Source: Candidatus Gottesmanbacteria bacterium (GTDB taxonomy: Bacteria; Patescibacteriota; Microgenomatia; UBA10105; UBA927). From it: 64,000 bases of DNA. Of this stretch, positions 22,465 through 36,413 are shown one piece after another. The stretch spans positions 2,489-66,488 of the forward strand of contig JACREN010000044.1 of the NCBI GenBank assembly GCA_016218255.1. The letters run 5' to 3'. The notes under the pieces were generated by a model that was given only the letters and a program-made list of their open reading frames with translations, made no database searches and was not told where the DNA came from. A program made the translations under genes and the position numbers. Positions within the stretch are counted from its first letter, which is position 1. Every line of letters begins with the position of its first letter.

Positions 22465-23415
22465 ATGCAAAAAAGCAGTGTAAATCCGGAGCTGTCCGTT
22501 ATTATTCCTGTTTACAACGAAGAGCAATCACTTCCGATACTGCACAAAGAACTCATTTCGGCACTCGAAAAAATCGGGTACACTTTTGAAATCCTCTATG
22601 TAGATGATGGCTCTACGGATCGCTCCCAAAATATACTCAGACGATTAACAAATCCGCGAGTTCATCTCATTACATTTCGGGCCAACTTCGGCAAATCGGA
22701 AGCACTTGCTGTTGGTTTTAGAACTGTAAAAGGGCGATATATTATCACGATGGATGCGGATCTACAAGATGATCCAACACAAATCAAACTGCTACTCGAT
22801 AAACTCATTTGTGGATATGACCTAGTGAGTGGCTGGCGCGTAAAACGAGAAGATACAAAGACAAAAAAAATCTCAAGCTTTCTTTTTAATAGAGGGACAT
22901 CGCTCCTCTCGGGCGTGAACCTACATGATGCGAATTGCGGCCTGAAAATATTTACCAAAGAAGTAGCGGATCAGATATCGCTTTACGGTGAGCTCCATAG
23001 ATTCATTCCAATTCTGGCTGCCAAAAAGAAATTCCGTGTCGCTGAATTACCTATTCATCACCGCAAAAGAAAATTCGGTGTCTCCAAGTATGGCTGGGAA
23101 CGCGGTTGGCGTGGAATCATTGATTTATTTACCACTCTCTTTGTCACGGATTACGCTACAAAACCTGCACACTTCTTTGGAAAAATTGGACTTCTCCTTT
23201 TCATAATAGGATTTATCATGGACGGATATGTCACCGCTCTAAAAATATTCACCGGCACCACACAGGGAAGAATCCCTCTGTTTCTTGCTGGTATATTGTG
23301 TATGGTCCTCGGAGTACAACTGCTCTCAACAGGACTTATTGCGGAGATGATGACGTACTATTTCCTGCGCCGGAATCCAAAAACCACACCCGGGCACGGC
23401 GGACCTGAACAATAG
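22465..23415 (+). CDS. Family-2 glycosyltransferase, polyprenol-phosphate sugar synthase type (GtrB/ArnC-like) with C-terminal TM helices
   Basis: 316 aa with 'LSVIIPVYNEEQSL', 'VDDGSTDRS' and 'ITMDADLQDDP', plus two C-terminal hydrophobic helices. Confidence 0.8.
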   Translation: MQKSSVNPELSVIIPVYNEEQSLPILHKELISALEKIGYTFEILYVDDGSTDRSQNILRRLTNPRVHLITFRANFGKSEALAVGFRTVKGRYIITMDADLQDDPTQIKLLLDKLICGYDLVSGWRVKREDTKTKKISSFLFNRGTSLLSGVNLHDANCGLKIFTKEVADQISLYGELHRFIPILAAKKKFRVAELPIHHRKRKFGVSKYGWERGWRGIIDLFTTLFVTDYATKPAHFFGKIGLLLFIIGFIMDGYVTALKIFTGTTQGRIPLFLAGILCMVLGVQLLSTGLIAEMMTYYFLRRNPKTTPGHGGPEQ

Positions 23416-25387
23416 GGCACACATTGTCAATTTCTGAAAATAATCCAATCATTGACGCCTTATCTGCTGGAAACGAATAAGAAAGCGATGTATTCCCCAG
23501 AGTGTATGACCTGTCCCCATCACCCATTTGAGTAATAAGAAAATACGGACTGAACCATTTATCTCCGTTTGATGAAACGCCAATTTTTATATTTTCCGGA
23601 GGTATACACCCGTCATTATCGAAAATTAACTCCAATTTTGTAATCTTTACTTCCCGAAGCAGACGAATAATGAGATCTTTCCCTTCTAACGCAAATGCTA
23701 CTTCTTCCATTTGTTGATTACGATACTCTGATTTTATGTTGGCTGGATCATTTTTCCATATCGTCAGAACCGTAGTGCCGTCAACACGTACCTCATAAAC
23801 CGGTTTAAGAAAACGTTCCAAAAATGCCGGCTCGAAGTATCGAAGCGCTTCAAAATCCATAGAGGTAGCCTCCATGATATATTCACCGCGGTGCGCGTAT
23901 CCGCTCCATACACTATCATCAAATATGATATCCGAACGCAAAAATGGACGGGGCAACGCGGACGTTCCCCGATGAACAAGAGTCAGGCGGGCTCCCTGTT
24001 CTGCATACTGATTTAGCCACTGTGCGCCTTGACGATACACGCTACCGAGATCTTCACCGGCAGAAGGGATTCGCAATGCATAAGCCCCACGCAATCCTCC
24101 GATAAGTTCATTTACATAAAGCGTCTCATTGGGATGAATTCGGATAAGCTTCGCGCCAGCAATGACAAATCCTGCAAAAATGAGTATTAAAATCATCACA
24201 CGCCACATACCGGTCAATCTCCAAACTATAAAGCGAGCGCCATACCCCGCTAATAAGCAGAACGCTGGAATATATTCCATGAGAAGTCTTGCACCGCCGT
24301 ATATAGATGTTCCTGGCATGCTTGCGCGCACTATAGGAATCGTCATCCAAAGGATGAGAAGCGTACCGAGCGGAGACGTTCGTCTTATGGTGTATGCGAA
24401 CGCAGCAATAAACCCAATTCCCCCCAATGCAAGAATCACGAGCGGTGTTGTCAACCCGATCCACGCGAGAGGATAGCTATTAAAACCAAAAAATAAATAT
24501 GCCGGCTGATACGGTTGGTATGTTCCAATTGATACGTAATATCCCAATATTTTTTTGAGATGTTCAATTGGCGCCGTCCAAAGAAACGGCCAGGACAAAA
24601 AAAACAGGGAAACTGCAATGACGCCTGCAAATGGAAATAATACAATAATCTTAGTAAGATTTCTTTTTCTTTCGGGTCGTTGAATCAACCAATAATACAA
24701 AAACCACAACCCTGCAATAATCGGCAGAAACGCGCTATTTAATTTCGTAGCCAGCGCAAACCCCCAGGCGATGCCGGAAAAAACAAGAAGCTTCCGGGAG
24801 TTTTTCGTCACCGCACGGTAAAAAAGAAGTACCGCAATGCTGAAAAACACCGTGAGCGGCGGATCCTTCACGTTAAAATGCGTCTCTGCCAAAAAAATAG
24901 GGTAGAGAAAAAGAGACAAGCCGCTCACGATGCCAGCGAGTATTCCGATTTCCTGTATCGCGAACCACACAAGAATTCCAATAAATAAAGAGGACAGAAA
25001 AATTCCAAAAACACTGTACGCTTCAATATCTCCGAGAACGCCAAACACTTCATAAAAAATGGTATTGGCCGCGGCAAACAATATGCCATTGAGCGGCGGA
25101 TGTCCACTATCGTTGAAACGCCAATACTGGGCGGTCATGTTGGGCAACTGATACATTGACCTTCGAGGCAACTGCGGACTATTTCCGATTAGCGGCGATA
25201 AAAAATACGTCAGGTAAGCCTTTCCCCGAACATAATGTGCGGGATCGTCCCAACTGATCCCATAATGAGAAAGCGTCGATAAACCAACAGCAAAGAACAC
25301 GAAACTAAAAATTACTGCGATGAATATATCAAATCGTTTTTTCACGTCTGTTATTGTATTATATACGTATGAAACGGCTGATTCCAA
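23336..25387 (-). CDS. GT-C-type glycosyltransferase, PMT/ArnT-like, paralog of 33352..35397
   Basis: 683 aa. It has an N-terminal TM helix, then 'GISWDDPAHYVRGKAY' and 'NDSGHPPLNGILFAAA', matching the DE-loop plus 'HPPL' architecture of GT39/GT83. The ORF track start is a TTG; a GTG at 25345 is possible. Confidence 0.55.
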   Translation of the reverse strand: MESAVSYVYNTITDVKKRFDIFIAVIFSFVFFAVGLSTLSHYGISWDDPAHYVRGKAYLTYFLSPLIGNSPQLPRRSMYQLPNMTAQYWRFNDSGHPPLNGILFAAANTIFYEVFGVLGDIEAYSVFGIFLSSLFIGILVWFAIQEIGILAGIVSGLSLFLYPIFLAETHFNVKDPPLTVFFSIAVLLFYRAVTKNSRKLLVFSGIAWGFALATKLNSAFLPIIAGLWFLYYWLIQRPERKRNLTKIIVLFPFAGVIAVSLFFLSWPFLWTAPIEHLKKILGYYVSIGTYQPYQPAYLFFGFNSYPLAWIGLTTPLVILALGGIGFIAAFAYTIRRTSPLGTLLILWMTIPIVRASMPGTSIYGGARLLMEYIPAFCLLAGYGARFIVWRLTGMWRVMILILIFAGFVIAGAKLIRIHPNETLYVNELIGGLRGAYALRIPSAGEDLGSVYRQGAQWLNQYAEQGARLTLVHRGTSALPRPFLRSDIIFDDSVWSGYAHRGEYIMEATSMDFEALRYFEPAFLERFLKPVYEVRVDGTTVLTIWKNDPANIKSEYRNQQMEEVAFALEGKDLIIRLLREVKITKLELIFDNDGCIPPENIKIGVSSNGDKWFSPYFLITQMGDGDRSYTLGNTSLSYSFPADKASMIGLFSEIDNVCPIVQVRRARVWFLDSGAGNSTSSSPQ

Positions 25388-27123
25388 TGATTATTTCAAC
25401 CATTTGTACCCTCTTCTTGCTTGAGGCAACACTCCGTATTTTTTGGGTTCCAGCCAACCTTGATCCCCGCTTTAGAAGACACGATATCCAATGGATGGAG
25501 CAAAACGTCGTATACAATTCATACGGATATCGTGATGTCGAATATACCCAAGGAAAGCCGGCCAATATCTTTCGCATCTATAGCCTGGGCGACTCGTACA
25601 CCTTTGGCTGGTATCTGCCGGATACGAAAAATACCTACACGAAGCTTCTTGAACATGATCTGAACGAAAATCAACACATTGCCAGCCAAATCATAAACGC
25701 TGCTTCCCCAGGGTTTTCCATGAAAGAAGAAGTGGATCGCTTTATGGAAGAAGGACGGTACTTTAACCCGGATCTGGTAACGATTGGCCTAAACTATGGA
25801 GACTTTATCACCGTGGGCCAGTTCCCAAACATCATGCTGCCATTCCAAAATGAACTGAACAAATCGTATCTCTATCGGACATCAGTCGGCAGACTCATTC
25901 AAATCATCGAATCTAAACGCCGCCGCGAGTATCTTCTGAATATTTTCCAAAATCCCGACTCTCCGGACTGGAAAGAGGCAGAGAAACTCTTAGTACATCT
26001 TCAAAAAGAAACGGCAGCGATCAATGCAAAGCTCGTTATCGTCCTGTTTCCGCATCTTGATACGGGAAATCCCGACGGACCATATTTATATATACCCATG
26101 CACGAAAAACTTACCGCATTTGCCAAAGAGCACGATATCACACTCGTCGACCCGTTGCCCTTGTATAAAAAATATAAAGACAAGGAGAAACTTGTCCTCA
26201 ATCCCATCGACGCCCATCCGACTAACGAAGCGCATGTATTGGTGTTTCAGGCATTTTTGAGATCGTTTTCATTTTCTTCGTATATTGCGAGCCATCAACC
26301 GTACCAACCACGAAAATTTTCAGTTTCCGTCCGATCCGAACGAGATAGGCTGCCGGCATTCAAAAAAATATGGCATATTAAATCTTCTGATCCAGGTATC
26401 CCGTGGGTGTACATGAATGATGACCAATCAGTTAAAACCATACCCCTTATAGATGCTGCGGCGCGCCAATCACCCATTTATCAGGATACGCTGCAAATTT
26501 TTAAACCGTCTCAGCCCGGCCAGCCTGGCAATACCATCGGCGCGTCGATGAAATATCATATTCTGGCAAAAAATCAATCCCAAGGGCAAATCATAATTCC
26601 CACGATTCTTTACGGATATCCTGTGGTCGGCATAGAAAATATCCAGGGATTATATATAGAAAAACAAGGGGGTACGGTAAAAGAATTTATCACGCCAATG
26701 AATATAAATTTCACCCCACAACAGATCACAATTTTTTATAAACCTGCTGCGGATTACTATGTCTTCCAGCTGGAGCTTGCCGTTGCCGTCAAACAGCTCA
26801 CCGTCACGGCAGATGGCCGAATTGCATACATAACCAAAACATCCATCATCACATACCCAATGAAAAAATCCGATACCCGTATTTCCATCCCGATAGGTGC
26901 TCCAATTGTCGGACTCCCGCAATTTACGGATATGAATGACAGTTACTCGTACGTCATTGATAATGGGGTCTTAACGCGCCTCCAGGAAATACACGTTACG
27001 GACAATCAACTCGATCTGCAGTTTGTCCACCCGATACGCGCGAACGCCGAGATTTCCATTCCCGTGGAACTAGGATATACTATAGACAATAATGAAGTTC
27101 TGACGCTTGACCTTGAACAATGA
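25354..27123 (+). CDS. Membrane-anchored SGNH/GDSL-family hydrolase or acyl-esterase, with a C-terminal beta-rich domain of about 300 aa and unknown function
   Basis: 589 aa. SGNH blocks are 'YSLGDSYTFGW' (I), 'NAASPGFS' (II), 'GLNYGDF' (III) and 'IDAHPTNEAH' (V). It has an N-terminal TM helix. The ORF track start is a TTG; the first ATG is at 25369. Confidence 0.65.
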   Translation: MYYIRMKRLIPMIISTICTLFLLEATLRIFWVPANLDPRFRRHDIQWMEQNVVYNSYGYRDVEYTQGKPANIFRIYSLGDSYTFGWYLPDTKNTYTKLLEHDLNENQHIASQIINAASPGFSMKEEVDRFMEEGRYFNPDLVTIGLNYGDFITVGQFPNIMLPFQNELNKSYLYRTSVGRLIQIIESKRRREYLLNIFQNPDSPDWKEAEKLLVHLQKETAAINAKLVIVLFPHLDTGNPDGPYLYIPMHEKLTAFAKEHDITLVDPLPLYKKYKDKEKLVLNPIDAHPTNEAHVLVFQAFLRSFSFSSYIASHQPYQPRKFSVSVRSERDRLPAFKKIWHIKSSDPGIPWVYMNDDQSVKTIPLIDAAARQSPIYQDTLQIFKPSQPGQPGNTIGASMKYHILAKNQSQGQIIIPTILYGYPVVGIENIQGLYIEKQGGTVKEFITPMNINFTPQQITIFYKPAADYYVFQLELAVAVKQLTVTADGRIAYITKTSIITYPMKKSDTRISIPIGAPIVGLPQFTDMNDSYSYVIDNGVLTRLQEIHVTDNQLDLQFVHPIRANAEISIPVELGYTIDNNEVLTLDLEQ

Positions 27124-27290
27124 AGTGCTTTTTCGGCAAAATAAAAATTATTGGGGAGATATTTGAATTTCTTGGGCATGAACGGCTGTGGTGGCTCGCC
27201 CCGCCGATTATCATATTGCTCTTGTTTGGTCTTCTGTTTGTCCTGTCTCACGGTACGGTGCTTGCCCCATTTTTGTATCCACTATTCTGA
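27120..27290 (+). CDS. Tiny single-TM membrane protein (56 aa) of a family often found next to carbamoyltransferases
   Basis: The ATG at 27120 overlaps the stop of the SGNH gene (ATGA). The product is 'MKCFFGKIKIIGEIFEFLGHERLWWLAPPIIILLLFGLLFVLSHGTVLAPFLYPLF'. It is not called as such in the ORF track. Confidence 0.5.
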   Translation: MKCFFGKIKIIGEIFEFLGHERLWWLAPPIIILLLFGLLFVLSHGTVLAPFLYPLF

Positions 27291-27484
27291 TGAAGAAAAT
27301 TCTTGTTTTGATATCAGATATCCAAATGACGATTATTATGACGATATTTTACCTCGTCATACTTGCTCCCTTTTCACTATTTGTAAAAAGTAAAATTAAG
27401 CCTTTTAAGACAAAAAAAAAGAACAGCAATTGGGAGCGCATACATATTACTTCAAATAATAAAGATCTGATGAAACAATACTAA
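27290..27484 (+). CDS. Tiny single-TM membrane protein (64 aa)
   Basis: Its ATG shares one nucleotide with the preceding stop (TGATG). The product is 'MKKILVLISDIQMTIIMTIFYLVILAPFSLFVKSKIKPFKTKKKNSNWERIHITSNNKDLMKQY'. It ends 7 nt before the carbamoyltransferase start. Confidence 0.4.
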   Translation: MKKILVLISDIQMTIIMTIFYLVILAPFSLFVKSKIKPFKTKKKNSNWERIHITSNNKDLMKQY

Positions 27485-27491
27485 TGCACCC

Positions 27492-29273
27492 ATGAATATC
27501 CTTGGCATTTCCTGTGATTATCATGATAGTGCTGCAGTTCTCGTTCGCGATGGAATTCTGGTCTCCGCAGCCCAGGAAGAACGGTTCACCCGATTAAAAA
27601 ATGATTCCTCCATCCCGCGCCATGCCGTTGATTTCTGCCTTTCACAGGGTAACATCGGGCTGAAAGATATTGATCGGGTTGCTTTTTATGAAAAGCCGTT
27701 CCGAAAATTTCACAGAATTCTGCTCTCATCGTTAGCCACATATCCGGCTGGTCTGCCGTTTTTTGTCGCAGCTATGCGTTCGTTTCTTTTGGAGAAATTG
27801 TGGATCAAAAATAAAATCATTGAAGAACTACATATACCGGAAGACCGTGTCTCATTCGTCCCCCATCACATTTCCCATGGGGCATCAACATTTTTTGCAT
27901 CACCATACTGCGACGCAACCATCGTAACGATTGACGGTGTCGGAGAATGGGCGACCTCAACCATTGGAAAAGGAAAAGATAACAATATCACGGTAATGGC
28001 TGAACAGCAGTTTCCCCATTCTCTTGGGCTTCTTTACAGCACAATCACCGCGTTTTTGGGATTCGAGGTTAATGAGGGGGAATACAAAGTCATGGGCATG
28101 GCACCGTTTGGAAAACCAATATATGCTGACAAAATTTGGAAACTTCTCAACCTGTTTCCAGATAGCAGCTTTCGGTTAAACCTAGAATATTTTTCCTTTC
28201 AGATATCAGAAAGCAGTCCATATAGTTCAAAGCTTATTTCTCTGTTGGGCAAGCCCAGGGATCCCGGCAGTCACTTTTTCACCAAACGCTCCGGTTTTCC
28301 TTCATATTTTGGCAAAAAACCAGCCGACTACGCGAAGCGTTGTGAAGAAAATCAACACTTTGCCGACATTGCCGCATCGCTGCAATACGTAGCGGAGCAT
28401 ATCATATTTTCTGTTATTCGCCACGCCTACACGATAGCGCCATCAAAAAATCTGTGTCTCGCCGGGGGAGTTTTCTTAAACAGTGTCGCAAACGGCAAAC
28501 TTCAAAAAAATACTCCTTTCCAACATATCTATATCCAGCCGGCGGCAGGTGACGCAGGCGGCGCATTAGGCGCTGCGCTTTATGTAAACAGAACCGTATA
28601 TCAATCCAAGCCTTTTATCATGACTCACGCGTATTGGGGCAAAGAATTCTCGGAAACAGAAATATTGCACGCAGCAAAATCATATAATCTCTCCTTTCGA
28701 AAAATACGCAATACGCGCAAACTCAACACAGTCATCATCAATGCGATAATGAATGAAAAAGTCGTCGGCTGGTTTAACGGGCGAAGCGAATGGGGTCCGA
28801 GGGCTTTGGGCAATCGAAGTATTCTGGCAGATCCCAGAGATCCCGCCATAAAGGATATTGTCAATACAAAAATAAAGTTCCGTGAGCCATTCCGTCCGTT
28901 CGCTGCTTCTGTTCTCGCCGGACATGAACATGAAATATTCGATATACCTGCTTCTCCGGGTTTACCCATCAATTTTATGCTCTGCGTGTATCCGGTCAAT
29001 AAGAAATGGCGTAAAAAAATTCCTGCAGTCACGCACGTCAACGGAACCAGCAGACCCCAGGTCGTCAACAAAAAAGATAATAAACGCTACTGGGAGCTTA
29101 TCAACGATTTTTATAAAAAAACCGGTGTGCCATTGCTATTGAATACATCGTTTAACATCAAAGGCGAACCGATCGTGAACACCCCGACTGATGCCATACA
29201 AACATTCCTCACAAGTGAACTCGATCTGTTAGTCATGGGAAATTTCATTATAACAAAACAATCAAATAGCTGA
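27492..29273 (+). CDS. O-carbamoyltransferase of the NodU/CmcH/TobZ family
   Basis: 593 aa. 'ILGISCDYHDSAAVLVRDGILVSAAQEERFTRLKNDSSIPRHAVDFCL' is the hallmark N-terminus of the family. A YrdC-like C-terminal region is present. Confidence 0.85.
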   Translation: MNILGISCDYHDSAAVLVRDGILVSAAQEERFTRLKNDSSIPRHAVDFCLSQGNIGLKDIDRVAFYEKPFRKFHRILLSSLATYPAGLPFFVAAMRSFLLEKLWIKNKIIEELHIPEDRVSFVPHHISHGASTFFASPYCDATIVTIDGVGEWATSTIGKGKDNNITVMAEQQFPHSLGLLYSTITAFLGFEVNEGEYKVMGMAPFGKPIYADKIWKLLNLFPDSSFRLNLEYFSFQISESSPYSSKLISLLGKPRDPGSHFFTKRSGFPSYFGKKPADYAKRCEENQHFADIAASLQYVAEHIIFSVIRHAYTIAPSKNLCLAGGVFLNSVANGKLQKNTPFQHIYIQPAAGDAGGALGAALYVNRTVYQSKPFIMTHAYWGKEFSETEILHAAKSYNLSFRKIRNTRKLNTVIINAIMNEKVVGWFNGRSEWGPRALGNRSILADPRDPAIKDIVNTKIKFREPFRPFAASVLAGHEHEIFDIPASPGLPINFMLCVYPVNKKWRKKIPAVTHVNGTSRPQVVNKKDNKRYWELINDFYKKTGVPLLLNTSFNIKGEPIVNTPTDAIQTFLTSELDLLVMGNFIITKQSNS

Positions 29274-32282: not shown

Positions 32283-33355
32283 AACGTATTATAAAAAAAA
32301 TCGACAACAACGTCACTTGGCCGACTCGTAACTTGCTTGTGACGGCGTAGTCTCCTGTACGAATTCAAAAACCAAACAACTCTCCTCATTTCCAACTTCG
32401 ACAAGTAAGCAGTCTCCCCAATGCCAATATCCTGTTCAATAACTTCTCTTAAAATAAGCATTGGAGTATTGAGAACAAACGTTTCTGTCTGCAACCCACC
32501 GCTGTCAGAAGCTACAAACTGACTGTGTCTGACTGCATGCATAAAATCAACATAATCAAAAAGATAACTGGTAACGAGCGGAAACTTACGTTTTAGCTCC
32601 AATATAGTCTGCCAAACTCCCTGCTTTTTAAGCTCAAAAACAGTATTGGTATGGATCGGCCATATGACGATAAACCCTCGGCGCAAAATTTCCTCCAATA
32701 TTCGGATAATGCGATGCAACCTTTCTTTGTTGAATAAATTTTCTTTTCTATGAAACGTAATGAGTACATATTTTTTTCCAAAAAATTGCTTTATCTTATT
32801 TGACGGTGGTCTTTGCAAAGCCAGTCTCGCCGAATCCAACGCCGTATTTCCGTTGGTAATGAAAATACTCTGCTTTCTCTTGATTGTGTCTGCGTCTCTC
32901 TGATATGGACAAAAACTAATATCGCTATACCTGGATACGACCGTTCGGGTAATCTCCTCAGGAAATGGTTCAAAAAAATTCCAACTGCGAATTCCGGACT
33001 CCAGATGCACGATGCGCGCACCAAACCATTTTGCAATGAGAAAACCCAAAATAGTTGACTCTGCGTCTCCATGGATAAGAACGTAATCATGTTTGGTTAT
33101 AGGAAGCTTACGCGCATTCCACAGCACATGAGGCGCCCAACACAACAGTTCCCAGATATTTGCAAGGTCCCTTTTTTTCATCGTCAGGTAGATATCCGGC
33201 TTGCGAATTCCCAATCTTTTTCTGGTATTTTCTATGATATGATAATGTTGACATATATGTATAAACTGATAGGGTACCCGACGCTTATCAAGCCCCTGCA
33301 TAACAGGAAACGTCTTCATGAATTGTCCCTTTGTGCCGATGAGTATATATATCAT
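32279..33355 (-). CDS. UDP-N-acetylglucosamine 2-epimerase family protein, second copy; a hydrolysing NeuC/LegG-like role is possible
   Basis: 358 aa with 'IVHLESGIRSWNFFEPFPEEITR' and 'FVASDSGGLQTE', which are epimerase_2 motifs. Confidence 0.65.
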   Translation of the reverse strand: MIYILIGTKGQFMKTFPVMQGLDKRRVPYQFIHICQHYHIIENTRKRLGIRKPDIYLTMKKRDLANIWELLCWAPHVLWNARKLPITKHDYVLIHGDAESTILGFLIAKWFGARIVHLESGIRSWNFFEPFPEEITRTVVSRYSDISFCPYQRDADTIKRKQSIFITNGNTALDSARLALQRPPSNKIKQFFGKKYVLITFHRKENLFNKERLHRIIRILEEILRRGFIVIWPIHTNTVFELKKQGVWQTILELKRKFPLVTSYLFDYVDFMHAVRHSQFVASDSGGLQTETFVLNTPMLILREVIEQDIGIGETAYLSKLEMRRVVWFLNSYRRLRRHKQVTSRPSDVVVDFFYNTL

Positions 33356-35352
33356 AATTTCTCTATTCCCTTAGGTCCATAAACACGAACTTGAATATAG
33401 GAAAGTATACAAGAAAGGAAATCGTTTGGAACGATATCGATCATTCGTGCCATTGTAGCCGGAAAAAAATAATACCATGTATTTGGCTTAAAATAAAATT
33501 TTTGATATTGCCCATAGATGCTTTTGAAAAACCGCATATCCTCCTCCATTCTTATTAAGTTCTCCCCATCAGCAATATATTGTACCCCGCCGTCATCCGC
33601 TTTGCTACAGTCCAACGTGTTGTGATCGACCTCTATTCGCGTTATTATTCTTAATCTGTCGAGACGAATTTTTATAAATCCTTCGTTTCGACCGCCTGTG
33701 ATGTCCACATTTGGAATAATCATCTCATTTGAAAGTTCAGGTTTAAAATATGTCGCCTCATTTTTCCAAATTTTCAAAACGGGTATGCCTTCAACGCTGA
33801 TTATATCGACTGGATTCATCATTTGATTTAAATAGAGAAAGTTATATCGCGGCGGCGGAAAATCTACCGACACCATTTCCATCATGTATTCCCCCTCATG
33901 TCTTAATGCAGAAAAATATGCACCAAATCGTATATCCTTCCGGATATACTGCCCTGGAATATTCGAAAGCAGCCCAACAGGCAAACCGACTCGGGCGTTC
34001 TGTTCTGCATGTTTATTAAGCCACCTGATGCCCTGCAGATATACATTTCCCATGGATTCCGCGGCTCCGGGAATCTTGTGTGCAACCGCACCGGATACAC
34101 CGCCAATCAGACTATTAAGAAATAAATTCTCATTCGGATGCATGCGCATCATCGTCAAAAGCGTTGGGACAAACAATAATACAATGACGACCGAAGAAAA
34201 AAATCTGCGCCCTGTTATTTTCACTAGCACTTCTCTACATATATGTGCGCCAAACCCTGTCAACAATACAAGAGCAGGTAAGTATTCCAAAATCTGCCTG
34301 ACGCCGCTATAAATGGATGCGCCCGGCCACATCACCCGCACGATCGGCACGCATAACCAAAATACCACCAGCCAGACAAACCGGCTCTTCTCCTTAAAAC
34401 GACCAGTCAATACTCCAACAAATCCAACAACCGCAAAAAGCAAAGAAACCAGCGGCGTTGATATAACGACAAAAAAGGGTGGATACATATTCCACCCGTA
34501 AAAAAGAAACGACGGCTGATTGGCATTGCCCGTACCTATTCCCTTGTAATACATGATTGTATCCCGCAGTCTTCCGATCGGATCAGACCAAAGATATGGC
34601 CAGGACGAGTAAAAAATCAAAAAAACGATAGCAGGAAAAAGCAAAAAAGACAAAATCATTCTCCGTGTAAAAAAGCGCGTTGGCCGGCAAATAATAAGAT
34701 AGGGCAGCAGCATAAAAGGAACAAAAACAATATTAAATTTTGTTGATAAAGCTAATCCGCATAAAAACGCAGACCACAGCAGCAGAGACGCTTTATTTTT
34801 CGTTATCCCGAGGTAAAAAAAATATACAGTTCCGGCAAAAAATGCGGTTTCTACCGGATCTTTGATATTAAAGCGTGATTCTCCCAAAAAAAGTGGGTAA
34901 AGGGCAAGGGCTAGGGCCGCGATACCTCCAGCAAACGCCCCAAGCGTGTCCCGCCCCATCACAAATACAAGAAACACCAATAAACCGGCAACAAGTACTT
35001 CAAACGCGTGATATGATTCCAAATCTCCCATAATTCCCAACTTCTCATAAAGTATCCGGTTGCTTAATGCAGCAATAATTCCGTTTAGAGCTGGATGCCC
35101 ACCGTCATTTTTCAGAAAATATTGCCCATTGTATTGCTGAATCTTCCATGCGCTTACTCTCGGTCCAATCAAATTCGATGGACGGTAAGAATACTGGCCA
35201 GTCGTCAATAAGTGTAAATATGCCTGACCACGAATAAAATGAATCGGCTCATCAATATTGATGCCGTAATCAGAAAGCGTCGCAACACCCACAACAAAAA
35301 AAACCATCGCTATAATTATTCCCCCAAAATACCGGATTATAAAATTTTTCAT
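33352..35352 (-). CDS. GT-C-type glycosyltransferase, PMT/ArnT-like, paralog of 23336..25387
   Basis: Motifs 'GINIDEPIHFIRGQAY' and 'DGGHPALNGIIAAL', with the same length and architecture as the paralog. The ORF track extends to 35397. The ATG at 35352 gives an ATGA overlap with the GT4 gene ending at 35349. Confidence 0.55.
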   Translation of the reverse strand: MKNFIIRYFGGIIIAMVFFVVGVATLSDYGINIDEPIHFIRGQAYLHLLTTGQYSYRPSNLIGPRVSAWKIQQYNGQYFLKNDGGHPALNGIIAALSNRILYEKLGIMGDLESYHAFEVLVAGLLVFLVFVMGRDTLGAFAGGIAALALALYPLFLGESRFNIKDPVETAFFAGTVYFFYLGITKNKASLLLWSAFLCGLALSTKFNIVFVPFMLLPYLIICRPTRFFTRRMILSFLLFPAIVFLIFYSSWPYLWSDPIGRLRDTIMYYKGIGTGNANQPSFLFYGWNMYPPFFVVISTPLVSLLFAVVGFVGVLTGRFKEKSRFVWLVVFWLCVPIVRVMWPGASIYSGVRQILEYLPALVLLTGFGAHICREVLVKITGRRFFSSVVIVLLFVPTLLTMMRMHPNENLFLNSLIGGVSGAVAHKIPGAAESMGNVYLQGIRWLNKHAEQNARVGLPVGLLSNIPGQYIRKDIRFGAYFSALRHEGEYMMEMVSVDFPPPRYNFLYLNQMMNPVDIISVEGIPVLKIWKNEATYFKPELSNEMIIPNVDITGGRNEGFIKIRLDRLRIITRIEVDHNTLDCSKADDGGVQYIADGENLIRMEEDMRFFKSIYGQYQKFYFKPNTWYYFFPATMARMIDIVPNDFLSCILSYIQVRVYGPKGIEKL

Positions 35353-36413
35353 ACAGATAATAAAACCCCTAACGCCTTCCGGGCCGCCAGATTCCAACTT
35401 CTTCTTTTTGCCTGAACAAGTGCGCCCATCTGCAACACTCTGTATAACTTCTTATCCTGTAATACACGAATCGCTTCACGAGCAAGTGAATCTGGATTCG
35501 GCGCAGTTAGTATGCCGCTCGTTCCATCCATTACGACATCCCGTACTCCCGATACATTATATGCAATCGTTGGGGTACGCACGAGTCCGGCCTCACTCAC
35601 CACCAACCCCCAACCCTCATGAATAGAAGGAAATAAAAGCAAATGAGCCTTTGCCAAAAAGGAAAATTTCTTTGTTTCAGATACCTTACCAAAAAAACGC
35701 ACCGAGTTTTTTCTCCAATGTGATTTTATCGGTCCTTCACCAATCACCCAAAAGTTGGCTTCTGGAAAATGATTTTTGACAAGATCAAAAGCCAATAGAG
35801 CGTCCTCCGTACCTTTTTGTTTATTGATTCTCCCCAAATACACCAACGTTGGATTATTTTCTTTTTTTGTTTTTGGTAGATGTCGAGGCATATCTACACC
35901 CAATGGAATAACTGTAATTCCTCGATCATTGAACCCTTCAGCGATAAGATCGTCCTTTGTTGATTTTGAAATTGTTATAGTCGGAACATTTCGGTACAAA
36001 TAGAAATATATTCTTTCAATCCAACGTCCCAATGCAGCCAAGGGCTTAGGAAACAAAACCGGAAAAAGTTTTTTGGCTACTTCACACGCCAAAAGTACTG
36101 TCTTATTACCTGCATAGAATACTGCAAAAAATGGATACCAATGCACTTCATCTATTACTACATCTGTAGCTTTTTTGAATCGAAAAAAATAATACCAAAC
36201 TGCCAATGCATGCACATTCCACCATCGGCCTCGCCGAAATATTCTCACCCCGTCAATATATTCATCGGGCAAACTTCCCCGATAACCGGCACAAAAGACA
36301 GTAACACTATGTCCCCAGATCACCCAGCGCTTTGCGAGTTCATGCGTGAGTCTTTCAGCACCCCCACCAGCCGGATTTTTGATATCACGCCAATTGAGAA
36401 TGAGGATTCGCAT
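35349..36413 (-). CDS. GT4 (GT-B fold) glycosyltransferase
   Basis: 354 aa with 'MRILILNWRDIKNPAGGGAERLTHELAKRW' and C-terminal 'LFPSIHEGWGLVVSEAGLVRTPTIAYNVSG'. Confidence 0.75.
   Translation of the reverse strand: MRILILNWRDIKNPAGGGAERLTHELAKRWVIWGHSVTVFCAGYRGSLPDEYIDGVRIFRRGRWWNVHALAVWYYFFRFKKATDVVIDEVHWYPFFAVFYAGNKTVLLACEVAKKLFPVLFPKPLAALGRWIERIYFYLYRNVPTITISKSTKDDLIAEGFNDRGITVIPLGVDMPRHLPKTKKENNPTLVYLGRINKQKGTEDALLAFDLVKNHFPEANFWVIGEGPIKSHWRKNSVRFFGKVSETKKFSFLAKAHLLLFPSIHEGWGLVVSEAGLVRTPTIAYNVSGVRDVVMDGTSGILTAPNPDSLAREAIRVLQDKKLYRVLQMGALVQAKRRSWNLAARKALGVLLSV

Follow-up and report, generated by a model that had tools for sequence, protein, structure and literature searches.

Locus architecture

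We analyzed a 64-kb stretch of a Candidatus Gottesmanbacteria genome (assembly GCA_016218255.1, contig JACREN010000044.1, positions 2,489 to 66,488), hereafter the window, and focused on the 368-bp gap at 27124–27491 between a gene for an SGNH/GDSL hydrolase and a gene for an O-carbamoyltransferase of the NodU/CmcH/SxtI type. Four genes follow one another on the plus strand of this region and form a predicted operon. The SGNH gene (25354..27123, Pfam Lipase_GDSL_2) is the first, and the carbamoyltransferase gene (27492..29273, Carbam_trans_N and Carbam_trans_C) is the last. Between them lie two short open reading frames (ORFs): ORF1 (27120..27290), which encodes a 56-amino-acid (aa) small membrane protein assigned through Pfam PF19451 to the DUF5989/SxtK family, and ORF2 (27290..27484), which encodes a 64-aa protein with one transmembrane helix, a candidate "mini-SxtJ" based on family profiles and hhalign.

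As read directly from the sequence, the TGA stop codon of the SGNH gene occupies 27121–27123, and the ATG of ORF1 at 27120 overlaps it as ATGA (27120..27123). This overlap suggests translational coupling. Similarly, ORF1 terminates with TGA at 27288–27290, and the ATG of ORF2 at 27290 uses the A of that stop, giving TGATG (27288..27292). The coordinates, the translation of the 56-aa protein, and the shared nucleotide at the second junction therefore agree exactly with the original prediction, which had been made from this DNA without database searches. The two ORFs together cover 361 of the 368 gap bases, consistent with the claim that the gap is almost fully coding, and the ATG of the carbamoyltransferase follows at 27492.

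Two related loci, L002 (Logan assembly) and L003 (GCA_964367065.1), were used for coding tests, and both have the layout of the window, namely, SGNH, a 56-aa ORF, a 68-aa ORF, and the carbamoyltransferase. The overlap between the SGNH gene and ORF1 is 4 nt in L002 and 1 nt in L003, and ORF1 and ORF2 are 11–12 nt apart in these loci rather than overlapping as in the window. Throughout the operon in the window (25354..29273), L002, and L003, the gene junctions are overlaps or gaps of 2–12 nt. No Shine-Dalgarno-like motif was found in the 22 nt before any of the four operon starts in these three loci. Given the tight junctions and the lack of this motif, translation may rely on coupling or on Shine-Dalgarno-independent initiation.

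The mechanical ORF list of the window shows only two entries in this region, 27151..27393 (80 aa, TTG start) and 27188..27484 (98 aa, GTG start), as the original prediction stated. In this list, an ORF begins at the first ATG, GTG, or TTG after a stop, and the default minimum is 60 aa. ORF2 is consequently listed only in the over-long 98-aa form, and ORF1 is absent because its 56 aa fall under the cut-off. Both genes are present in the public annotation of the Candidatus Gottesmanbacteria metagenome-assembled genome as hypothetical proteins HY948_04740 (ORF1) and HY948_04745 (ORF2) on a 67.8-kb contig, and independent gene calls from a Logan assembly give the identical two genes.

Coding status of the two short ORFs

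Protein-level conservation in homologous loci, which had been proposed as a check on the two ORFs, is clearly observed. The proteins from L002 and L003 are 70–71% identical to ORF1 (P0003 and P0004), and those corresponding to ORF2 are 44% identical in L002 and 58% identical in L003. In Nei-Gojobori comparisons with these two loci, the proportion of synonymous differences (pS) is saturated for both ORFs (0.63–0.87; 0.79–0.87 for ORF2), and third-position differences dominate. The proportion of nonsynonymous differences (pN) is only 0.17–0.21 for ORF1 and 0.28–0.37 for ORF2, and the ratio of nonsynonymous to synonymous substitution rates (dN/dS) of ORF1 is approximately 0.1. Moreover, the ORF2 homolog of L002 lies in the frame of ORF1, four codons past its stop, whereas ORF2 occupies a different frame in the window and in L003. 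Because the relative frame and spacing differ between loci, ORF1 and ORF2 are independent cistrons.

Among 2000 dinucleotide shuffles of positions 27100–27500, 9% contained a single plus-strand ORF of 56 aa or more that begins with ATG, and two such ORFs in tandem never occurred. With zero tandem pairs among the 2000 shuffles, chance does not explain the ORF pair. Furthermore, when the whole window was scanned in six frames with profiles built from distant loci only, ORF1 (E 6.3e-18) and ORF2 (E 2.7e-11) were the sole significant matches. Collectively, the sequence comparisons indicate that ORF1 and ORF2 are almost certainly real protein-coding genes.

Two other readings of the gap were weighed against this conclusion. 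According to one, the longer ORFs at 27188..27484 and/or 27151..27393 are the real genes. They are the longest in the ORF list, and a 98-aa GTG-start form of an ORF2 relative is present as a database protein (P0005). However, in L002 just four codons separate the ORF1 stop from the ORF2 homolog, which is in the frame of ORF1; this leaves no room for an N-terminal extension, and the 98-aa form cannot be conserved. In the window, the extension would overlap ORF1 by 103 nt. The 80-aa frame is interrupted by stops in L003, and the similarity in alternative frames ends at the end of ORF1, which identifies the 80-aa ORF as a shadow of ORF1. Neither longer ORF has a significant family match in Pfam or NCBIfam, and it is thus extremely improbable that they are the genes. 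According to the other reading, the ORFs arose by chance, and the gap serves the carbamoyltransferase gene as a noncoding leader or a regulatory RNA. The slightly low guanine-plus-cytosine content of the gap (0.36–0.38) is the sole point for this reading, whose probability is close to nil. Conservation is at the amino-acid rather than the nucleotide level, as the saturated synonymous sites show; the nucleotide-only conservation that the original prediction expected of a regulatory RNA is not seen. Rfam gives no match in the gap (the best, on the opposite strand, has E 0.33), the RNA fold energy is no better than that of shuffles (z +1.22), and no terminator-like site lies within the gap; likewise, the promoter and terminator scan provided nothing bearing on it. 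The regulatory-RNA reading is effectively refuted.

As a side observation, P0005 has an upstream GTG-type start, and its 34-aa N-terminal extension is an out-of-frame shadow of the neighboring DUF5989 gene. Its start is probably mis-annotated, giving the same over-long ORF as 27188..27484 in the window.

ORF1 in the DUF5989/SxtK family

ORF1 matches the Pfam model PF19451 (DUF5989) with a score of 59.9 bits (cutoff, 27; E 2.4e-16; model positions 2–49 of 49), and the precomputed Pfam annotation of an identical database protein is also PF19451. The protein starts with an N-terminal helix, which a break at ERLWW..PP separates from a single transmembrane helix, and the conserved motif APFLYPLF lies at the C-terminus. 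AlphaFold predicts helices at residues 3–20 and 27–55, the second long and hydrophobic, and Kyte-Doolittle analysis places the hydrophobic segment at 30–48; a charged segment lies at the N-terminus. In addition to the score above threshold, ORF1 thus has the length of about 50–60 aa, the single transmembrane helix, the W-W and APFxYxLF signatures, and the same-strand NodU/CmcH-type neighbor of a DUF5989 protein. Based on these features, ORF1 is almost without doubt a member of DUF5989, the SxtK family. SxtK itself is the 54-aa product of sxtK (165 bp) in saxitoxin clusters (PMC2679770). No papers on DUF5989 came up in a search of the literature.

ORF2 and an unnamed protein family

ORF2 contains a helix at approximately residues 13–33 with an invariant proline (P27) and a basic tail that ends in KQY. 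AlphaFold predicts a helix at residues 2–35 followed by a low-confidence tail, disordered as a monomer. The C-terminal flank of the helix carries seven Lys/Arg residues, with a charge of +7, and the basic tail is probably cytoplasmic. For both ORF1 and ORF2, the Kyte-Doolittle and AlphaFold results agree on the one transmembrane helix that had been predicted.

When ORF2 alone was searched, it gave no Pfam match to SxtJ at E ≤ 1, no accepted Pfam family, and no NCBIfam match. A word-indexed protein search returned only ORF2 itself, and an exhaustive phmmer search of 1.84 billion representative proteins yielded three credible relatives and a spurious repeat protein (P0007). An assignment of ORF2 as an orphan was nevertheless dropped because synteny-guided profiles tie it to a large family. 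Assignment to UPF0114 (E 0.0084, below threshold) was also rejected; this match was seen in only one of 41 family members and was judged to be due to chance.

The profiles were applied to a sample of 80 loci from Acidobacteriota, Methylomirabilota/Rokubacteria, Binatia, Omnitrophota, Curtissbacteria, Chloroflexota, and others, in which the carbamoyltransferase is 50–54% identical to that of the window and small genes were sought within 4 kb. A profile of six Gottesmanbacteria-type ORF2 sequences detected a small same-strand ORF, hereafter J-like, in 67 of the 80 loci, with E values down to 3e-12. Reciprocally, a profile of 62 distant J-like ORFs, with Gottesmanbacteria excluded, recovered ORF2 with E 2.7e-11 and 39.9 bits, the next best match in the window having E 0.46. 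By this reciprocal profile comparison, ORF2 is a member of an unnamed family, which we call the mini-SxtJ family. Its alignment matched at least 1216 proteins of a large protein database at E ≤ 0.001. Among the 120 matches listed, all are hypothetical or unnamed proteins without a Pfam domain, mostly of 72–79 aa, and neither ORF2 nor typical members of the family are covered by an NCBIfam model. The consensus of the family reads W..WKKIA.KIGNFQARVLLTVFY.VLVLPFGL.VRLFSDPL.IKKRP..W...(~10)..ARKQF.

Relation of ORF2 to SxtJ

Typical family members align with the C-terminal half of the Pfam model of SxtJ (PF19588; gathering threshold, 24.4 bits), at positions of approximately 50–99 of 99, with scores near or below threshold. 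Of 41 family members, 27 match SxtJ at E ≤ 0.1, the best with E 1.7e-05, and no other family recurs. To align profiles with hhalign, a 41-sequence family alignment with ORF2 as the first row was compared with four SxtJ-type proteins, that is, three above the Pfam threshold and a 143-aa Ensifer protein with 21.4 bits. The resulting probability is 96.6% (E 6.6e-10, 74 columns); family columns 11–85 correspond to SxtJ residues 62–138, and the alignment extends through a common KQF C-terminus. The SxtJ reference set is small, as tblastn of SxtJ against plasmids gave only three planctomycete records. The curated planctomycete SxtJ proteins have 138 aa and score 34–42 bits on PF19588, and the 138-aa SxtJ of Aquisphaera has hydrophobic segments near residues 40–58, 73–91, and 86–104.

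Additionally, P0068, P0072, P0092, and P0097 (112–113 aa) are mini-SxtJ family proteins with one extra N-terminal hydrophobic helix. These members are predicted intermediates, and the number of helices thereby rises stepwise from one to two to three. In view of this series and the hhalign homology, ORF2 is termed a mini-SxtJ.

Several direct comparisons weigh against a relationship with SxtJ. ORF2 does not reach the PF19588 gathering threshold, having no match at E ≤ 1; a hidden Markov model of the four SxtJ sequences gives ORF2 only E 1.4, not significant, in the window; and a three-sequence Gottesmanbacteria profile aligns with SxtJ in hhalign with only 41.5% probability (E 2.7e-4). Because the direct comparisons of ORF2 are weak, the link to SxtJ is transitive through the larger family. 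Nor does ORF2, with 64 aa and one helix, have the full SxtJ architecture of about 134–143 aa and three hydrophobic segments. On the strength of the family-level alignment, ORF2 very likely shares ancestry with the C-terminal half of SxtJ, namely, its last membrane helix and cytoplasmic tail, and it would work in a similar way.

Linkage of the small genes to the carbamoyltransferase

In the sample of 80 loci, DUF5989 (K) genes are as frequent as the J-like (J) ORFs, occurring in 67 loci; 76 loci have at least one of the two small genes, and 58 have both. All 68 J matches and all 69 K matches lie on the strand of the carbamoyltransferase (CT), and this strict linkage can be taken as established. 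In 58 of the 80 loci, the J-like ORF lies immediately next to the start of the carbamoyltransferase gene (median gap, 3 nt). The gene order is K-J-CT in 27 loci and J-CT-K in 14. Relatives of the SGNH enzyme of the window lie nearby in about one quarter of the distant loci, and they also occur on Ensifer and Azospirillum plasmids. On the Ensifer plasmid, a GDSL esterase gene is followed by genes for a 143-aa SxtJ-like protein, a DUF5989 protein, and then the carbamoyltransferase. Three planctomycete plasmids carry the carbamoyltransferase gene followed by genes annotated as "SxtJ family membrane protein" and then "DUF5989 family protein", with no SGNH gene nearby. Collectively, these comparisons identify the cassette of the window as the likely Gottesmanbacteria version of a widespread carbamoyltransferase/SxtJ/SxtK(/GDSL) module.

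Some individual loci show further variation. On an Azospirillum oryzae plasmid (NZ_CP054615.1; L084, 6133–6330), a 65-aa "hypothetical protein" encoded after the carbamoyltransferase and SGNH genes ends in SPFVYTLR. It has no Pfam match at E ≤ 0.1 but looks like a degenerate DUF5989 protein, and DUF5989-like partners may therefore be under-counted. Two near-identical DUF5989 copies are present in L006 (2678–2893 and 4419–4634), and two J-like and two DUF5989 copies are present in L066 (1380–1835, 3617–3958, 2–439, and 1931–2134); these duplicates indicate local duplication of the module. Finally, a carbamoyltransferase with 54% identity (L068, 485–2266) lies on a contig binned with a metagenome-assembled genome of Nanoarchaeota (DPANN), and the sequence examined, which extends only 484 nt upstream, shows neither a J nor a K ORF. 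The contig may have been wrongly binned, or the gene may have moved between episymbiont lineages.

The flanking enzymes and the surface-glycan cluster

The SGNH protein matches Pfam Lipase_GDSL_2 with 34.2 bits (cutoff, 32.9). In the Logan gene call, it has 584 aa and begins with the ATG at 25369 (MKRLIPM...), which is probably the true start. The 5' end of the SGNH gene and that of a divergent PMT_2 gene overlap (25354..25387) only through the choice of the first TTG in the ORF list. The SGNH protein has a single hydrophobic segment, at residues 4–22, which would act as an N-terminal anchor. For the carbamoyltransferase, the matches are to Carbam_trans_N (E 4.7e-71) and Carbam_trans_C (E 1.2e-68), and the sequence GPRALGNRS is found at residue 435; the motif GPRALGxRS is the putative catalytic site of SxtI (bioRxiv 10.64898/2026.06.11.731795). 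No hydrophobic segment of this enzyme reaches the transmembrane threshold, and it is predicted to be soluble.

The neighbors of the operon in the window encode family 2 glycosyltransferases, two PMT_2/ArnT-like membrane glycosyltransferases, a CapD/PseB-type dehydratase, and a DegT aminotransferase, as well as a hexapeptide acyltransferase, a UDP-GlcNAc 2-epimerase, and a cupin. As judged by these annotations, the operon is part of a predicted surface-glycan biosynthesis cluster. The two PMT_2 proteins are paralogs of approximately 680 aa that resemble ArnT and dolichyl-phosphate-mannose transferases, and their genes (23336..25387 and 33352..35397, both on the minus strand) bracket the sugar-modification genes. 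This pair suggests two lipid-linked glycosylation steps on the membrane's outer face.

Proposed role of ORF1 and ORF2

Taking the linkage and the family assignments together, we consider it likely that ORF1 and ORF2 are functional partners of the carbamoyltransferase. With nearly the same confidence, the best overall explanation of the locus is probably a four-gene operon in which a DUF5989 protein and a mini-SxtJ accompany this enzyme as small membrane proteins. According to the positive-inside rule, the two proteins would be inserted in antiparallel orientation, ORF1 with its N-terminus inside and C-terminus outside and ORF2 with its N-terminus outside and C-terminus inside. Each would then present 25–30 conserved residues to the cytoplasm, namely, the N-terminal helix of ORF1 and the basic tail of ORF2. 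In the most economical reading, the two proteins could form a small adaptor to which the soluble carbamoyltransferase docks at the inner face of the membrane. There, the enzyme would carbamoylate a glycan intermediate that is lipid-linked or close to the membrane, and the SGNH enzyme, itself anchored in the membrane, might serve as an esterase or an editing enzyme for this substrate. This specific adaptor mechanism is proposed tentatively and is clearly less probable than the partnership as such.

Three observations count against this explanation. The predicted topology derives solely from the positive-inside rule, and the helix of a typical J-like protein has basic residues on either side. 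Four of the 80 loci have neither small gene within 4 kb, and the carbamoyltransferase may therefore not strictly need the small proteins. In addition, the literature found on SxtJ, SxtK, and DUF5989 reports no experiment: SxtJ and SxtK are "hypothesised to work in conjunction" with SxtI (PMC2885083, PMC12300590, bioRxiv 10.64898/2026.06.11.731795), and PMC2679770 likewise offers this as a hypothesis only.

Two different roles were considered for the small proteins. They might be regulators or stabilizers of the carbamoyltransferase or of the SGNH enzyme that affect activity, stability, or substrate choice without localizing it, which we regard as improbable. The linkage evidence is the same as for an adaptor, some loci have J only or K only, and K does not keep one place with respect to J and the carbamoyltransferase, as the two gene orders above illustrate, so that no rigid co-translational assembly order exists. 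No specific observation argues against regulators, but the conserved segments predicted to face the cytoplasm (W..WKKIA, DPLxIK..W, and KQF) fit an adaptor equally well. A more elaborate role would be a trans-membrane relay, in which cytoplasmic carbamoyl activation is coupled through the small proteins to extracytoplasmic glycan modification by the SGNH enzyme. Acyltransferase-3/SGNH O-acetyltransferases provide an analogy for such a relay. The single N-terminal anchor of the SGNH enzyme could allow it to face outward, and SGNH genes recur beside the module, just as sxtL adjoins sxtJ and sxtK (PMC2679770, PMC10157211). However, a conduit is hardly to be expected from one or two single helices, a detectable SGNH neighbor is limited to the quarter of related loci noted above and is missing from the planctomycete modules, and SxtL has been proposed to be a decarbamoylase (PMC2679770). 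A relay is thus highly improbable. Compared with both roles, the partnership of adaptor subunits with the carbamoyltransferase remains the preferred explanation.

Beyond this, the cassette might be a dedicated membrane-assembled machine that O-carbamoylates cell-surface glycans, with the tiny proteins as obligatory parts and the mini-SxtJ (64–79 aa) as the minimal functional core of SxtJ, consisting of one helix and the DPLxIK...W...KQF tail. We regard this stronger proposal as rather unlikely. If it were true, the roles of SxtJ and SxtK would be directly testable in culturable carriers, and the module would be a pan-bacterial glycan-tailoring device that was later recruited to toxin biosynthesis.

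For the window itself, the consequence is small, since both are ordinary genes that have already been annotated. The original prediction was correct but not new because both genes are in GenBank, ORF1 belongs to a named family, and ORF2 appears to be a remote relative of SxtJ. The locus does illustrate how longest-ORF tracks hide overlapping small genes. A modest novelty lies in the recognition of the large mini-SxtJ family, comprising one-helix proteins that appear to be a truncated form of SxtJ. Mini-SxtJ and DUF5989 proteins widely accompany one clade of O-carbamoyltransferases across many phyla, including candidate phyla radiation (CPR) bacteria with very small genomes, and the locus provides what may be a minimal version of the SxtI/J/K trio. 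Moreover, culturable carriers, namely, Ensifer/Sinorhizobium megaplasmids and planctomycete plasmids, were identified in which the hypothesis that SxtI works with SxtJ and SxtK can be examined.

Comparison with known systems

Each component of the cassette was compared with its closest known counterpart. ORF1 resembles SxtK and the other proteins of PF19451 in size, in the single helix, in the WW motif, in the C-terminal APF(I/L)Y(T/P)LF motif, and in the carbamoyltransferase neighbor. It reads YPLF in place of the commoner YTLF, and there is no essential difference. In the window and in about half of the related loci, the gene lies upstream of the carbamoyltransferase; sxtK, in contrast, follows sxtI and sxtJ (PMC2679770).

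Within the unnamed family, known from Acidobacteriota, Methylomirabilota, Binatia, Omnitrophota, Curtissbacteria, and others, ORF2 has the same position, the same strand, and the same tight junction with the carbamoyltransferase. However, it is the shortest and most divergent form; it is without the N-terminal MW..LK..W segment, and ISDIQMTII replaces the IGNFQARVLL of the family. Both the ORF2 family and SxtJ (PF19588) have the last hydrophobic helix, which bears FY...P(F/I)GL, as well as a (D)PLxxK motif, a conserved W, and KQF at the C-terminus. The genomic partners are also the same, as both cluster with a carbamoyltransferase and DUF5989. In contrast, the genes of the ORF2 family are mostly directly upstream of the carbamoyltransferase, and SxtJ is downstream.

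At the level of the whole cassette, sxtI, sxtJ, sxtK, and sxtL occur together in cyanobacterial saxitoxin clusters (PMC2679770, PMC2885083, PMC2684587), and genes similar to sxtJ, sxtK, and sxtL occur together in the suomilide gene cluster (PMC10157211). sxtL encodes a GDSL lipase (PMC2679770), the counterpart of the SGNH gene of the window, so that the sxtI-J-K-L block and the operon of the window consist of the same four protein types (PMC2679770, PMC2684587). The order in the window is reversed (L-K-J-I), and the SxtJ component is truncated. Furthermore, the sxtI-J-K-L block is part of an alkaloid toxin cluster, whereas the operon of the window lies in a cell-surface glycan cluster of a CPR bacterium. 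From this glycan-cluster context, the substrate of the carbamoyltransferase of the window is presumably a sugar hydroxyl rather than decarbamoyl-saxitoxin.

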